From assembly GCA_965221905.1 (NCBI GenBank), contig OZ244922.1, forward strand, positions 64,001-128,000: a stretch of DNA of 64,000 bases, given 5' to 3'. Source of the DNA: Chloroflexota bacterium (GTDB lineage: Bacteria; Chloroflexota; UBA11872; VXOZ01). A program made the translations under genes and the position numbers. Shown here piece after piece: positions 3,884 through 61,290 of the stretch. Under the pieces are notes generated by a model. That model was not told where the DNA came from. It ran no database searches and saw only the letters and a list, made by a program, of their open reading frames with translations. How positions within the stretch are numbered: the first letter of the stretch is position 1; every line of letters begins with the position of its first letter.

Positions 3884-3972
3884 TGGACTCCGGCTTTCGC
3901 CGGAGTGACGGATTGGGCACCTGCGACCGCCTTCTTGGCTACCAGCCAGCGGGGGACAAGCCCCCGCGCTAC
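3884..3972. repeat. Family D copy (3884-3910) plus family B copy (3948-3972)
   Basis: tggactccggctttcgccggagtgacg; agcgggggacaagcccccgcgctac. Confidence 0.8.
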
Positions 3973-4036
3973 GGCGATTCGATGTCGCGGACTTCTCAGC
4001 GTGGGGCTGCCGCGCCGTGCCACCGCGAAAGCCACC

Positions 4037-5116: not shown

Positions 5117-5222
5117 GAACTACTCCACACTGTGATTACTGCGGGACGACACACCCCACACTGCTTGTTGAACCTGCAACGGTTTTCTGTCTGTCTTCTC
5201 TGCTAAGTAGATATAATCTCCT

Positions 5223-5542
5223 GCGGGGGACGAGCCCTCGCGCTACGGTTCACTGTAGTGACATTTCAAGACCAGTCCGTCACTCCCGCGCACGCGGGAA
5301 TCCATCTTCACACCTGCCACGCTGTCGTCGCTTGCGGTGGTCATAATGCAATGCGACCCCAACAATTGCCGAGGAAGAGCAAGGGCAACTATCTCCGGTA
5401 GCGCAGGTTTGCAACCTGCGTCCACCCGGTGGAAGACGATCCCATTCACAGTTCAACTGCGATAGCGACTACAAACTTGGGAATCGCCCTCACCCCCGTA
5501 TCAAGTACGGGGCAGGCTCTAGCCCTCTCCTCCGGGAGAGGG
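5223..5542. repeat. Mixed repeat cluster: B (5223-5246), D (5278-5304), H (5398-5420), E with 24-bp insert (5484-5542)
   Basis: Four different hairpin families in one intergenic gap. Confidence 0.8.
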
Positions 5543-5626
5543 AATAACAATACCAGTCGGTGGTGGATAGGAGTAGTGCGTCACATCCACTTTGCGAAAG
5601 CCCCAAAGGACCGGCCCCGCGCAATG

Positions 5627-11990: not shown

Positions 11991-12017
11991 TGTCATTCCG
12001 AGCGAAGCGAGGAATCT
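11991..12017. repeat. Family C repeat (TGTCATTCCGAGCGMAGCGAGGAATCT)
   Basis: Other copies at 18452-18497, 18539-18575 (reverse), 21434-21460 and 55815-55841 (reverse). Confidence 0.85.
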
Positions 12018-18451: not shown

Positions 18452-18671
18452 TGTCATTCCGAGCGAAGCGGCCCCGTGCGAAACACGGGGAGGAATCTGG
18501 AGTCCATGTCGCGCCTAGTCCAATAGGCTCACCATCTTAGATTCCTCTCTGCGCTGCGCTCCGATCGGAATGACATGTGCATAAGGCTTGCACACCATTA
18601 CGGAAAACGTGACATGTGTATAAGGTATGCACGCCGCTCCGCCTATCTTCTCTGCGTGCGCGGGAATGACG
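18452..18671. repeat. Inverted pair of family C repeats (18452-18575, left copy with hairpin insert) plus partial D copy
   Basis: tgtcattccgagcgaagc[ggccccgtgcgaaacacggg]gaggaatct ... agattcctc...cggaatgaca. Confidence 0.75.
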
Positions 18672-21433: not shown

Positions 21434-21596
21434 TGTCATTCCGAGCGCAGCGAGGAATCTAAGGCGATTGGTCCAGCTCTTTCCCCAGGTTTCCTCTCAG
21501 AATCAGAGTGAAAGTGTAGCACCTGGGCTTGTTCCTGCACAGGGCGGCGAGCATTTCATCTAATATGGATGGATTCCCGCGCAAGCGGGAATGACG
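21434..21596. repeat. Family C copy (21434-21460) and reverse family D copy (21570-21596)
   Basis: tgtcattccgagcgcagcgaggaatct; tggattcccgcgcaagcgggaatgacg. Confidence 0.8.
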
Positions 21597-22846: not shown

Positions 22847-22987
22847 GTAGGGGCACGACATGTCGTGCCCCTACACGTGTGTGGGGCTAGAAGAAGAGAT
22901 TTGACCCTCACCCTAACCCTCTCCCGCCGGGAGAGGAGACTTTCTCGCCTCGGCAAGGGTTTCGCAAAGGTCTCCAGCGGGAGAGGG
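22847..22987. repeat. Family A palindrome (22847-22874), family E copy (22905-22936) and partial E copy (22971-22987)
   Basis: ccctcaccctaaccctctcccgccgggagagg; between convergent genes. Confidence 0.85.
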
Positions 22988-24403: not shown

Positions 24404-24430
24404 GTAGGGCACGACATGTCGTGCCCCTAC
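24404..24430. repeat. Family A palindrome (one G missing)
   Basis: gtagggcacgacatgtcgtgcccctac. Confidence 0.85.
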
Positions 24431-24525: not shown

Positions 24526-24672
24526 CGTCATTCCGGCGAAAAGCCTGCCCCGTACTTGATACGGGGCCGGAATCCATCTTGTCCGTGCGCACCGATTGTT
24601 GAGCCGTTTCAAGTCCAGCGCGAAACTTCATTCTTGCCCCCCACCTGGACTCCGGCCTCCGCCGGAGTGACG
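24526..24672. repeat. Inverted pair of family D repeats (REPIN-like); left copy carries the 24-bp module
   Basis: cgtcattccggcgaaa[24 bp]gccggaatcca ... tggactccggcctccgccggagtgacg. Confidence 0.85.
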
Positions 24673-30263: not shown

Positions 30264-30379
30264 GCTCTGCCCAGATTCCTCAAGGCAGTGCGCGGTATAC
30301 TAAGCTGGGTGAAGACGCATTTGTCGTCTCCGCACCATCGTCATTTTTCCCGCTCTGCACCTGACGCGTACTGATCTGG

Positions 30380-30555
30380 AGCGGGGGACAAGCCCCCATG
30401 CTACGCTTTGGCGGCAGTGGCTCCCAGGGGCGAGTAGTGAAATATCGCGGATACAAGCTTTGTCACTCCGGCGGATGCCGGAGCCTAGGCAGGCGGCGAG
30501 GATGGAATTCGTCCCCGCATTAAGTACGGGGTAGGCACTGCGCCAGACGTACGGA
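30380..30555. repeat. Cluster: B (30380-30404), D (30462-30487), degenerate reverse D with 24-bp module (30514-30537)
   Basis: agcgggggacaagcccccatgctac; gtcactccggcggatgccggagccta; cccgcattaagtacggggtaggca. Confidence 0.7.
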
Positions 30556-34330: not shown

Positions 34331-34735
34331 CTACGGGAACCACTTCAGGATTGCCACCACCACACCGCCTGCCGCGATCGCTAACCCTGCCAGTTGTATC
34401 GTCTGACGATTCAGCCGTTGTTCAAGCCGTAACTCCAGGTCTTTCAGCTCGGTCTTGAAGTCGGCACGCACGGCGGCGATGTCTGCCGCAGTCGCGCGTG
34501 CTAGCTCTTGAATATCGTCCTTGGTCGCGCGTGCCAGGTCTTGGATATCGGCTTTGATCGTGCGTGCTAAGTCTTGAATATCGGCCGAGGTCGTTTGTGC
34601 CAGTTCTTGAACGTCGGCTTTGGTTGCCAGCGCGTCACGCGAATCACCCATCGTCTCAATCAAGGCTTCTGCTTGGGTCTCGCTGAAACCTGCACCCGTG
34701 AGCGTCTTTACCGCCTTGTGGGTGTCTACACTCAT
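34331..34735 (-). CDS. DUF1640/CCDC90-like coiled-coil protein with C-terminal TM anchor
   Basis: DTH..VK.L..AGFSE.QAEA, LATKAD, five 11-aa repeats, hydrophobic C-terminus. Confidence 0.8.
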   Translation of the reverse strand: MSVDTHKAVKTLTGAGFSETQAEALIETMGDSRDALATKADVQELAQTTSADIQDLARTIKADIQDLARATKDDIQELARATAADIAAVRADFKTELKDLELRLEQRLNRQTIQLAGLAIAAGGVVVAILKWFP

Positions 34736-37594: not shown

Positions 37595-37774
37595 GCTGCC
37601 TTCGTCAAAGGTCCGATGTCGCTCTGGTAGCGTAGGTTTGAAACCTGCGCCCGCTGCCTTCGTCAGAGGCCCGGTTTCGCTCCGGTAGCGTAGGTTTGAA
37701 ACCTGCGCCCGCTACCTTCGTCAGAGGCCCGGTTTCGTTCCGGTAGCGTAGGTTTGAAATCTGCGCCCGCTGCC
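37595..37774. repeat. Tandem array of a 58-bp unit (three copies plus partial), each containing a family H GTAG hairpin
   Basis: Units start at 37595, 37653, 37711, 37769; core gtagcgtaggtttgaaacctgcgc. Confidence 0.9.
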
Positions 37775-37829
37775 GTCTCTCCGGCGCAAGCGGGACTTCA
37801 CCTGCTCTGTGCCACTCGGCTCCGTCCCA

Positions 37830-38137: not shown

Positions 38138-38361
38138 CTAGAAGCTATCTCATAAATCGGTTCGATAGCCAATTTGTGCTTCGACAAGGGCTTCGCGCAG
38201 CACTCAGCACGAACGGATTCTTGCCTTTTCCGTTCGCCCCCGTATCGTGTCGATACGCTGTATCGAGTACGGGGCAGGCTCTGAGCCTGCCTGTCCTGAG
38301 CTTGTCGAAGGGTCGAAGGGCAGGTCTACACCCAGCGATGTATTTGTGAGGCAAGTTCTAG
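38138..38361. mobile_element. MITE-like element with CTAG at both ends, containing inverted family F repeats
   Basis: ctagaagctatctcataaat ... atttgtgaggcaagttctag (15/20 inverted match). Confidence 0.55.
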
Positions 38362-41568: not shown

Positions 41569-42090
41569 ATGGCAGACGTAGAATTACAGGTCAAGACGCG
41601 AGGTGGCGCGACTATACACAAGGCCGCAGTGCTGGCAGCGTATCCTGATGGAAGATACCTTACAGGCCAGACTGACGCCGACGGCAAGTGCCGACTAAAC
41701 CTGTACCGCGTCGATCAGGAAATGAAGATACTTATAGCCGCAGACGGCCACCTTCCTTTCCATGAAGCCCTCGTCCCGGGGAATTCAGAAACCGTCTCCT
41801 TGGAGTTAGAGCCGTCCAAGGATGACAGAAGGGCGCTCCTATTCACCCGGAGCACAGGATACATCCCAGGGATTACGGGACGCCTCAATCCACACAAAGA
41901 TGGCTATGTTTACGGTGACAATATTGCCATAAACGGGCAACTTGCAACGCCTGCCGCACATTTCGAGATAGAGGAGTACCTCCATCTGATCGACGTGTAC
42001 GGCGTCGAGACAACAATCCGATTCTTAGTGGTTGAAGGACAGTTTTCGCTTATTGAGTACACTGAGCCCAAGGCTTATGCAGGGGAATGA
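41569..42090 (+). CDS. hypothetical protein (probable all-beta; N-terminal carboxypeptidase-regulatory-like strands)
   Basis: AGGAG RBS, 173 aa, TDADG motif, GYIPG..GRLNP; stop overlaps the next start. Confidence 0.65.
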   Translation: MADVELQVKTRGGATIHKAAVLAAYPDGRYLTGQTDADGKCRLNLYRVDQEMKILIAADGHLPFHEALVPGNSETVSLELEPSKDDRRALLFTRSTGYIPGITGRLNPHKDGYVYGDNIAINGQLATPAAHFEIEEYLHLIDVYGVETTIRFLVVEGQFSLIEYTEPKAYAGE

Positions 42091-48111: not shown

Positions 48112-48358
48112 GAGGGTGTGTGAAAAGGGCGTCCCTTCATCCTTCGACAGGCTCAGGACGAACGGATCAGAAACTAAACCCATTGGATAATCAGTAGCCG
48201 TTCGTGGTGAGCACATCGACAGGCTCAGGACGAACGGGGTAGAAACTAAATTCGTCGGAAAAGCCACTATCCGTTCGTGGTGAGCACATCGACAAGCTCA
48301 GCACAGGCTTGTCGAACCATGAACGGATACTGTTGCTGCGAGCTTCTCACACACCCTC
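48112..48358. mobile_element. MITE (247 bp) with 16-bp TIRs and TAA target duplication, filled with family F repeats
   Basis: taa|gagggtgtgtgaaaag ... cttctcacacaccctc|taa; 15/16 inverted identity. Confidence 0.75.
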
Positions 48359-52896: not shown

Positions 52897-53313
52897 CCCT
52901 CTCCTGGGGGAGAGGGTTTGGGTGAGGGCGAACAAAATGGCACCACAAGGCGCTGCAAGGGCCCGACATCTCCGGCAGAGTTCAACAGAAGCCGAGAAGA
53001 CCCTTTGGCGTCACTTGCGCAGCCGTCAGTTGGCGGGTTGCAAATTCCGCAGACAAGCACCTCTTGGCAGGTACATCGTTGACTTCTTGTGCTATGAGCG
53101 AAACCTGGTGATCGAAGTCGATGGTGGTCAGCACCAGCTACGTTCAGAAGAAGATTCAATACGCACGAACTGGCTGGAGGCCTGCGGCTTTCGCGTGGCT
53201 CGCTTCTGGAACAATCAGGTGTTAGAAGAGACTGAAGCAGTCTTGGATGCCATCCTACGGCAGTTGCAGGGCGAAGAGTCGCCCTCACCCTAGCCCTCTC
53301 CCCCAGGAGAGGG
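52897..53313 (+). mobile_element. 417-bp unit: DUF559 endonuclease gene between two inverted family E repeats
   Basis: Left 52897-52931 ccctctcctgggggagagggtttgggtgagggcga; right 53279-53313 reverse-complements to ccctctcctgggggagagggctagggtgagggcga (33/35). Confidence 0.7.
52937..53293 (+). CDS. DUF559 / Vsr-like endonuclease domain protein
   Basis: AR.LR..STEAE..LW..LR, KFRRQ.P.G.YIVDF.C, LVIEVDGGQH, D..R...L...GF.V.RFWN; alternative GTG 52922 lies inside the left repeat. Confidence 0.92.
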   Translation: MAPQGAARARHLRQSSTEAEKTLWRHLRSRQLAGCKFRRQAPLGRYIVDFLCYERNLVIEVDGGQHQLRSEEDSIRTNWLEACGFRVARFWNNQVLEETEAVLDAILRQLQGEESPSP

Positions 53314-53345
53314 AACTAGAGGGGCTCCGCGAGACGGATAGTGCC

Positions 53346-57582: not shown

Positions 57583-58049
57583 CCATTCATCCTTCGGCCC
57601 TTCGACATGCTCAGGACAGGCACGCTCAGGATGAACGGTACGAACATCTCCAACGGAAAGTCGCCGCTTGTGGCTGGCAAAGTGAGGTATAAACGGCAAT
57701 GAGGCAAGTGTTTCTGACTCACTCCCTCTATGGTGGGGGGGAATTAGTTACAGGAGTCTTGCACTAAAGAGCGGGGGACAAGCCCCCGCTCTACGGTTTC
57801 GGAGTCGCATTTAGGAGGATGGGGGGGGGGGGGGTGATCGTTGGGATGAAGACCGAATAATCCTGTACGTACGCCAAGACGGCAAGTGATGGGGCCGTCG
57901 GTTCCTTAACGACCGTAGGGGCACGGCATGCCGTGCCCCTACGGTCTCACGCTTATGCGCCCTCACCCTAACCCTCTCCCACGGGGAGAGGGAACAGTCG
58001 AGGAAGTTATCGCCCTCGCCTTAGCCCCCTTTACGCAGCGGGAGAGGGG
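57583..58049. repeat. Large mixed cluster: F (57583-57638), B (57770-57794), G14 tract (57821-57834), A variant (57915-57942), E (57958-57992, 58010-58049)
   Basis: Each element matches copies elsewhere in the window. Confidence 0.85.
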
Positions 58050-61122: not shown

Positions 61123-61158
61123 GAGGCGACTATCCTATTGGAATTTATTGATATTTTC

Positions 61159-61290
61159 CGTCATTCCGGCGAAAGCCGGAATCTAGTCTCTTGATTAGAG
61201 ACGAGCGTCCTGGGTTATTCTCCGTATCACGTGCGGGGCCAGAAACCATCTTCGCTGCATCCCTGGACTCCGGCGGAAGCCGGAATGACG
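61159..61290. repeat. Inverted pair of family D repeats (REPIN-like)
   Basis: cgtcattccggcgaaagccggaatcta ... tggactccggcggaagccggaatgacg. Confidence 0.85.

Follow-up and report, generated by a model that had tools for sequence, protein, structure and literature searches.

A 24-nucleotide REP-like hairpin, very probably mobile, found inside other repeats and transposase genes under several phylum labels

How does a hairpin of only 24 nucleotides come to lie, cleanly and without a duplicated target, inside repeats that are unrelated to one another? The question is raised by a 64,000-nt stretch of a Chloroflexota bacterium genome (GenBank assembly GCA_965221905.1, contig OZ244922.1, positions 64,001 to 128,000; hereafter the window, with coordinates counted from its first base), in which the 24-mer CCCGTATCAAGTACGGGGCAGGCT, here called the module, interrupts several families of short repeats. 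An earlier note on this DNA had proposed an ultra-short mobile unit that targets extruded hairpins. We found that the module is very probably a discrete mobile insertion element, on the basis of its constant ends, its insertion after a C, the lack of any target duplication, and its gain and loss between near-identical sequences. The fuller proposal, that the 24-mer belongs to a miniature, non-autonomous family of mobile hairpins resembling repetitive extragenic palindromic (REP) sequences and moved by a trans-acting HUH/Y1 enzyme, is in our judgement evenly balanced between right and wrong.

The exact 24-mer was found once on each strand of the window, as the note had reported. A search allowing up to three mismatches added a 3-mismatch match at 38257-38280 on the forward strand, and relaxing it to six substitutions brought in 30514-30537 alone, while 100 dinucleotide shuffles of the window gave no match at up to three mismatches. 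Five copies or relatives of the hairpin were counted in the 64 kb, and the features are as follows.

5495-5518, forward strand: canonical 24-nt module, an exact match, with a CCC + GTA stem, the 5-nt loop TCAAG, TACGGGG and the tail CAGGCT
24542-24565, reverse strand: canonical 24-nt module, matching as an exact reverse complement
38239-38280, forward strand: module with the loop variant TCGAG and 18 additional nt in the loop, inside an F-family copy (ccgttcgcc ^ ctgagcctg)
38248-38265, forward strand: the 18-nt internal addition in the TCGAG-loop copy, an inverted 5' arm CGATACG plus a repeated GTATCG
30514-30537, forward strand: degenerate module with 4 substitutions, inside a decayed D-like hairpin (ggaattcgtc ^ ctgcgccagacgtacgg)
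18471-18490, no strand assigned: 20-nt relative CCCCGTG CGAAA CACGGGG, without the CAGGCT tail, splitting a C-family hairpin
61222-61243, forward strand: possible decayed relative TCCGTATCACGTGCGGGGCCAG, in no clearly intact host

Together with the host C at 5494, the first of these copies folds into a 7-bp stem, a 5-nt loop and the unpaired tail CAGGCT (-6.8 kcal/mol as DNA, z = -3.5). The degenerate copy and the 20-nt relative also stood as the note had described them, the boundary of the latter being ambiguous by 1 nt so that 18470-18489 is equally valid. The F-family copy was present with its 18-nt insert, and its fold shows an extra CGTATCG/CGATACG hairpin, but the insert is, judging from its letters, a local template-switch duplication of the module's own arm and not a second mobile insert. 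Free-standing copies had been said to be absent; the main copies do split repeats, although the possible decayed relative at 61222-61243 may be an exception.

What makes the copies other than this relative readable as insertions is that each interrupts a repeat of which the window also contains an intact version. The interrupted and reference repeats are listed below.

5484-5543, forward strand: interrupted E-family repeat, tcgccctcacc ^ ctagccctctcc..gggagaggga, with its intact paralogue at 53279-53315
53279-53315, forward strand: intact (empty) E-family reference copy, read from the sequence
24526-24574, forward strand: interrupted D-family hairpin of the CGTC-tagged REP type, CGTCATTCCGGC GAAA GCCGGAATC, with the module between the loop and one arm
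61158-61183, forward strand: intact (empty) D-family CGTC-type hairpin used as reference, read from the sequence
11993-12017, forward strand: intact (empty) C-family hairpin used as reference, read from the sequence

In the E family the filled site reads tcgccctcacc, the 24 nt, then ctagccctctcc, and the intact copy reads tcgccctcacc|ctagccctctcc. The filled D-family site reads cgtcattccggcgaaa, the 24 nt on the reverse strand, then gccggaatc, to be compared with the intact copy at 61158-61183. The F-family copy reads ccgttcgcc, 42 nt, then ctgagcctg, and its intact half at 48144-48165 reads ccgttcgtc|ctgagcctgtcga as the reverse complement. In the C family the guest is the 20-nt relative, between gtcattccgagcgaagcg and aggaatc, and intact copies lie at 11993-12017 and 21436-21460. 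Removal of the guest restores the host repeat in all four families. The sites were read by eye; no target duplication was seen at any of them, and the boundaries are ambiguous by at most 1 nt.

To see how far the module extends beyond this contig, species-representative genomes were scanned with GYATYRAGTACGGGGYAGGC, all counts being lower bounds. At least 133 module loci (numbered below with an L) were found in about 88 assemblies under at least 8 phylum labels, as labelled by NCBI.

Chloroflexota, mostly metagenome-assembled genomes (MAGs) of Dehalococcoidia: at least 91 loci
Pseudomonadota: at least 19 loci
Thermodesulfobacteriota: at least 15 loci
Myxococcota-labelled: at least 2 loci
Bacteroidota: at least 2 loci
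Tectimicrobiota: at least 1 locus
Planctomycetota: at least 1 locus
Nitrospirota: at least 1 locus
No phylum label: at least 1 locus

Among the matches listed, seven of the Pseudomonadota loci belong to cultured Pseudoxanthomonas isolates, and one 3.3-Mb contig carries at least 16 copies. The flanks match the composition of their own genome, being AT-rich in Flavobacteriaceae and Methyloprofundus, for example. Because of this, and because the contig names point to different assemblers, mis-binning or a sequencing artefact is insufficient to account for the distribution. A sequencing adapter or assembly artefact was ruled out separately, on the different assemblers indicated by the contig names, the cultured isolates and the diverged copies. 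A 37-nt query in the distant mode of BLAST gave no match in a phage collection or in E. coli genomes, and two weak matches in plasmids, one of which led to a stem variant in Sinorhizobium meliloti. No paper was found that contains the module's 15-mers (both loop variants, both strands) or the heptapeptides it encodes, in a search that left subscription papers and supplementary files outside its reach.

The anatomy of the module was assessed from 137 distinct instances at the positions left unfixed by the search pattern. Conservation stands at 97-99% for the three leading C and at 96% for the T that closes the module; the preceding host base is C in 96%, and the two host bases that follow are C in 78% and T in 76%. 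Of the two loops, TCAAG was seen in 72 instances and TCGAG in 65. The tag CAGGCT stands 3' of the stem throughout, within the searched pattern, and on the opposite strand the family reads as a 5' tag AGCCTG followed by the hairpin. In the 403 kb examined, 28 non-canonical hairpins have the identical CCCC/GGGG foot and CAGGCT tail with different upper stems, and these stems covary (GA/TC, GC/GC, GG/CC, GT/AC, TG/CA, TT/AA). The variant stems are listed here.

CCCCCGA..TCGGGGG
CCCCCGC..GCGGGGG
CCCCCGG..CCGGGGG
CCCCCGT..ACGGGGG
CCCCGTG..CACGGGG
CCCCGTT..AACGGGG
CCCCGGAC..GTCCGGGG

A further variant, CCCCGGA..TCCGGGG, is itself the host of a canonical module in L018 and L025. It also occurs as CCCCGGA TCAAG TCCGGGG CAGGCTC in S. 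meliloti Ak57 (CP090106.1; L134, 1501-1526), inside a 78-aa annotated transposase fragment adjoining a HigA/RelE pair; this replicon is labelled pSymB, yet is 3.7 Mb long. Since foot and tail stay constant while the upper stems covary, the unit under constraint is the foot, any stem-loop and the tail, which implies recognition specific for both sequence and structure. Tandem head-to-tail arrays of the module with a constant spacer were observed at L012 (period 57), L015 (period 46), L084 (two adjacent copies) and L121, and in one case among these loci a partial module is followed directly by a full one.

The insertion target was examined in 117 distinct instances, collapsed to 59 flank classes. 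Position -1 is C in 56/59, +1 is C in 40/59 and +2 is T in 43/59; position -2 is C in 28/59 and A in 17/59, and little else is conserved. The usual target is thus C^CT, and the junction rule CNNC^ given in the earlier note did not hold beyond its last C. Its claim of a discrete, ultra-short unit with constant ends was borne out, the same boundaries recurring in unrelated contexts with no target duplication. The E repeat has been entered at three different CC^CT positions. For the proposed targeting of extruded hairpins, we compared targets with control C^CT sites. A perfect inverted repeat of at least 5 bp spans the insertion point in 22/66 target classes against 110/864 controls (odds ratio 3.4, p 3e-5), and one of at least 6 bp in 15/66 against 46/864 (odds ratio 5.2, p 7e-6). 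A noisier classing by minimum-free-energy folds, on which we relied less than on the spanning repeats, placed the junction in a hairpin loop in 16/58 targets and 72/575 controls (p = 0.004). However, two thirds of the target classes have no spanning inverted repeat of even 5 bp, and in the commonest host, the E family, insertion is usually found ~5 nt upstream of the hairpin. The targeting of hairpins is real, but it is only partial.

Most copies lie in REP-like hairpins, a unit resembling a miniature inverted-repeat transposable element (MITE), or insertion sequence (IS) elements, but others lie in protein-coding genes, so the view that the module occurs only inside other repeats survives in part. 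When 126 instances were sorted by conservative regular expressions, 25 came out as E-like, 23 as D-like and 6 as F-like, 11 fell in IS genes and 3 in other genes, and 58 stayed unclassified; many of the last are visibly palindromic, and no firm figure for the fraction inside repeats follows from this classing. The MITE-like unit, of ~135 bp and bounded by TATACCAAGT...AATTGGTATA, consists of a D (CGTC-type) hairpin with the module inside and was found in two MAGs.

Loci of the ~135-bp MITE-like unit: L004-L006, L046, L063, L076, L090, L111, L113

The simplest reading of this concentration in repeats combines three things: C^CT is common in the C-rich arms of these repeats, exposed loops are somewhat preferred, and insertions survive only where 24 bases are harmless, as in clusters of repeats between genes and in IS genes that can be dispensed with. 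Amplification of the composite hosts adds further copies.

The copies inside genes allow filled and empty alleles to be compared. Read-through open reading frames (ORFs) place the module inside the Pfam domains DDE_3 (L016, L038, L116), DDE_Tnp_1 (L039, L099), DUF4096 (L037) and DDE_5 (L057), and at L074 it lies across the frame break of an ISAs1-type gene; the transposases with the module are of the IS630, IS5, IS701 and ISAs1 families. Three more loci (L056, L064, L041) look like further IS cases, as suggested by flanks common to verified cases or by an adjacent transposase ORF. Outside transposases, the module was found in a DnaG-like primase adjoining a Rad52 gene (L060), in the receiver domain of a hybrid sensor kinase in Saprospiraceae (L017), and, along with other hairpin repeats, in a UvrD-type helicase in Syntrophaceae (L019). 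The helicase domain at L019 is broken by an in-frame run of differing hairpin repeats (WIPDQVRND, VIPARGGTQ, PRIKYGAGS, ...), a pattern like the REP clusters that Di Nocera et al. (PMC3733652) describe in genes for replication and repair. As read from the sequence, a 24-nt insert preserves the frame; the G-loop variant contains no stop codon in any of the six frames, and the A-loop variant contains a single TGA.

Empty alleles, which the earlier note had suggested looking for in relatives, do exist. In the IS701-family transposase at L057, the eight residues PYQVRGRL stand between ETRT and WAGW and are missing from 8/8 aligned homologues, one of them 97% identical. The identical insert is present at the identical position in 8/121 members of this IS701 family. 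Filled member P0006 is 99% identical to empty P0029, and filled P0012 is 98% identical to empty P0102. On a FastTree phylogeny built with the insert columns left out, the filled state requires 7 changes, of which well-supported branches force at least 6, and it is not more clustered than shuffled labels (shuffle mean 7.9; 60/500 shuffles as low). Filled and empty copies probably occur within one genome, since the contig of the filled L064 and the longest contig of four empty members are both 4,352,608 bp long. The second comparison is between two IS630-family copies, L016 and L038, on a single Dehalococcoidia MAG contig (CBDANJ010000008.1), which are 76% identical in an end-to-end alignment with clean gaps. 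L016 alone has a canonical 24-nt insert at ...ATGGATAAC^TTGAAC..., and L038 alone has one at ...GGCTGAAC^ATGGC..., where the empty copy reads GAAT|ATGG, a difference of one base or a one-base shift of register. Each copy also has one private opposite-strand CCCCCGG variant of ~25 nt, and two variant hairpins are common to both. Counted together, these are six hairpin insertions in ~1.1 kb (two shared, four private), much denser than in the intergenic DNA of the window, and one ~25-nt variant shifts the frame of the L038 copy.

How such a unit would move can be proposed from its structure. The element would be excised or copied as single-stranded DNA, and a trans-encoded nuclease-ligase specific for structure and tail would rejoin it. 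The enzyme would recognise the folded hairpin with its tail and cleave at the 5' foot of the hairpin and after ...GGCT. Placement, as the sites show, is directly 3' of a C, usually at C^CT, where the host C lengthens the stem to 7 bp. Survivors accumulate where 24 bases are tolerated, that is, in the loops and flanks of palindromic repeats, the MITE-like unit, IS transposase genes and occasionally ordinary genes, and composite hosts carry the module further. The most likely enzyme would be of the HUH/Y1 kind, a REP-associated tyrosine transposase (RAYT) or IS200-like protein. By analogy, the right-end layout, a hairpin with a 6-nt tail ending in CT, fits an HUH substrate, and E. coli TnpAREP is described as needing nothing beyond a CT dinucleotide where it cleaves and as cutting on either side of the REP (PMC3333891, PMC8266576). 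Taken alone, the assignment to an HUH/Y1 enzyme is one that we make tentatively, and with more doubt than confidence.

Several results weigh against this assignment or against the account as a whole. None of the 51 window ORFs matches a Y1/HUH Pfam family, and there is no transposase of any other kind among them. In the flanks (2 kb at 80 loci and 300 bp at the rest), 300 greedily chosen ORFs of at least 110 aa gave no Y1/HUH match either, in a scan that leaves out shorter ORFs and those masked by longer overlapping ones. A phmmer search with E. coli RayT at E<=10 over 4,477 six-frame segments also found nothing, although a single-sequence search has limited reach. The Y1/HUH gene flanked by the module that the earlier note had suggested looking for was therefore not found in this material. 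On the 3.3-Mb contig, orientation alternates in local clusters and not by replichore, and no orientation bias relative to neighbouring genes was seen (15 vs 15 and 12 vs 11). A weak signal relates flank GC skew to orientation (50 vs 28, p = 0.017), with instances that are not independent. With one hairpin there cannot be distinct left and right ends of the kind used by IS200/IS605, and systems of RAYTs with their REP doublets (REPINs) have been described as vertically inherited, whereas the module crosses phyla. Finally, so short a motif cannot account for repeated insertion at one IS701 site, which would call for a tighter specificity at the site, for IS copies converting one another, or for precise loss; the latter two could mimic recurrent insertion.

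The likeliest alternative is a different mover: a recombinase, a GIY-YIG/HNH-type nuclease with repair, or a conserved host enzyme that processes single-stranded DNA. The empty searches for a Y1/HUH gene, the same 24-mer under at least 8 phylum labels and the lack of replichore-level strand bias are all as this explanation would have them, and a widely conserved host enzyme would allow activity in many phyla without a dedicated partner; CGTC-type REPs, as treated in PMC3733652, are likewise without a known dedicated transposase. However, the examined flanks show no recurrent candidate gene of whatever sort, and it is above all HUH substrates that combine a hairpin, a short tail and a cut after CT (PMC8266576, PMC3333891). 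We regard a mover of another kind as unlikely, though well worth keeping in view.

An enzyme may also be dispensed with altogether, if the copies were created by replication template switching, or by gene conversion between repeats, through 1-3 nt of microhomology (a C at the left junction and CT at the right) and were then amplified passively with their hosts. The flanks do mimic the module's own ends, with C before CCC and CT after GGCT; the duplication at 38248-38265 is a clear template switch; composites such as the 135-bp MITE-like unit have spread; and the scattered IS701 pattern could be gene conversion. This explanation is nevertheless improbable given the exact 24-nt boundaries that recur in no fewer than 59 unrelated flank classes, where microhomology does not exceed 1-3 nt, the near-identical sequence across phyla, and the conserved foot and tail on covarying stems, which imply specific recognition.

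Less probable than either is that the 24-mer is a footprint, or a minimal derivative with left and right ends joined, of a larger element that enters hairpins and IS elements and later excises, and that would be bounded by CCCGTATC... and ...AGTACGGGGCAGGCT. The loop can take extra DNA (18 nt in the window copy, ~22 nt in L100), but in the 403 kb, a sample biased to intact modules, no left half CCCCGTATY was followed by shared internal sequence, isolated right halves all adjoin a degenerate left half, and no cargo-bearing or convincing long-loop form was seen. A functional motif kept by the host (a protein-binding site, terminator or RNA hairpin), which the very high conservation and stable hairpin might suggest, is just as improbable in view of the absence of orientation bias relative to genes, the occurrence in coding regions of transposases and other genes, the presence/absence polymorphism between near-identical IS copies, and the lack of any Rfam match in the whole window at gathering thresholds.

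A trans-moved, REP-like hairpin, our preferred account, can be set beside the systems already described. Like GTAG REP and REPIN-RAYT sequences, the module is a short, GC-rich repeated hairpin (20-40 nt), non-autonomous, with a short unpaired tag beside the stem. In place of GTAG the module has the tag CAGGCT, or AGCCTG when read from the opposite strand. Unlike REPINs, the module occurs as single 24-nt units gained and lost on their own, not as inverted doublets, with few tandem arrays (L012, L015, L084). Unlike in REPIN-RAYT systems, no RAYT was found in the examined flanks, the same 24-mer is not lineage-specific, and insertion, for which empty alleles exist, can be placed to the nucleotide. 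The window itself has GTAG-type families, which are, from their sequence, classical RAYT-type REP designs, and because they are present the source genome may encode a RAYT. They are listed here.

2090-2113, 2931-2954, 22851-22874, 24407-24430 and 57919-57942, reverse strand: GTAG plus a perfect stem-loop, GTAGGGGCACGAC AT GTCGTGCCC
3947-3977, 5221-5251, 30379-30409 and 57769-57799, reverse strand: second GTAG-type hairpin family, GTAGCGCGGGGGCTTGTCCCCCGC
2810-2841 and 5392-5423, forward strand: third GTAG-type hairpin family, GTAGCGCAGGTT TGTA AACCTGCG

In addition, three tandem 58-bp units at 37595-37777, just downstream of gyrA, each contain a GTAG-type hairpin CCGGTAGCGTAGGTTTGAAACCTGCGCCC.

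The CGTC-tagged REPs, which include Neisseria dRS3 and Rickettsia RPE-4 and RPE-6, are treated by Di Nocera et al. 2013 as having no known dedicated transposase (PMC3733652). Their hallmarks, as given there, are a terminal CGTC (or TGTC/CCTC) tag, an 8-9 bp stem beginning with AT pairs and a 4-5 nt loop, and REPs are said to lie regularly inside other palindromes in T. roseum, A. variabilis and H. neapolitanus, and also in frame within genes. The module is like these REPs in its hairpin-plus-tag design and its in-frame gene insertions, but it lacks the CGTC tag, and CCCC opens its stem. It is the host families D and C that match the CGTC class (CGTC ATTCCGGC GAAA GCCGGAAT), so that here the CGTC-type hairpins are hosts and not the guest. 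One short hairpin family nested in several unrelated families and in IS genes is not described in the accessible parts of PMC3733652.

With IS200/IS605 the module has in common the absence of target duplication, insertion 3' of a short motif, and a right end made of a hairpin, a few nucleotides and a cleavage point (PMC3333891). Unlike those elements, with their two subterminal hairpins, guide sequences and a 4-5 nt target, it has one hairpin and a target of 1-3 nt. IS200/IS605 also prefers the lagging-strand template, and the module showed no replichore bias, a comparison that covers one contig whose origins and termini were not located and copies that sit in composite hosts. Classical MITEs, with the terminal inverted repeats of an IS and a target-site duplication, differ in that no module site compared has a duplication. 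Rickettsia palindromic elements (RPEs) were reportedly described by Ogata et al. in 2000 as selfish DNA inserted in frame in genes and tolerated there. RPE-1 in protein-coding genes is mentioned in PMC3733652. The module is likewise palindromic, in frame and tolerated in genes; RPE-1 is ~100-150 bp long and confined to one genus, whereas the module has 24 nt and crosses phyla, the two being set apart here by description and not by sequence. Because the defining tags are absent, and because it is neither a doublet nor lineage-specific, we did not file the module in the GTAG or the CGTC class. It behaves like the REPs of those classes and appears to represent a further tag class. A bolder version, which we consider doubtful, is that CAGGCT-tailed hairpins form a third class of REP-like tags and the smallest self-contained mobile unit yet resolved to the nucleotide, moved in trans by a broadly distributed or co-transferred enzyme and crossing phyla inside IS elements, as parasites that prefer other selfish DNA.

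The genes of the window are those of an ordinary chromosome (gyrA, ftsK, RNase J, pyrG, leuB, and numerous genes for amidohydrolases and solute-binding proteins). The cumulative GC skew of the window reaches a minimum at ~12-16 kb and rises after it, which may mark a replication origin or terminus. At 34492-34622, three 33-bp tandem repeats lie within an ORF (34331-34735, reverse strand) that matches a coiled-coil CCDC90-like family. The ORF at 42087-42461 matches the archaeal PaREP1/PaREP8 family (E = 7e-9) and overlaps the end of the upstream ORF at 41569-42090, which has no Pfam family.

The module is unusual in its 24-nt size, its empty and filled alleles readable at the nucleotide level, its identity across phyla and its frequent insertion in IS genes, and it is among the smallest mobile DNA units seen. 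The spread of single REP-like hairpins has been argued mostly from copy distributions, and here insertion can be read base by base. In annotation, a warning is due, since predicted proteins gain stretches such as PVSSTGQA, PYQVRGRL or PRIKYGAG from the module. It also serves as a marker for tracing the exchange of IS elements between phyla. The hairpin with CAGGCT is a concrete substrate for finding the responsible enzyme, and bench testing is possible because cultured Pseudoxanthomonas strains carry the module.

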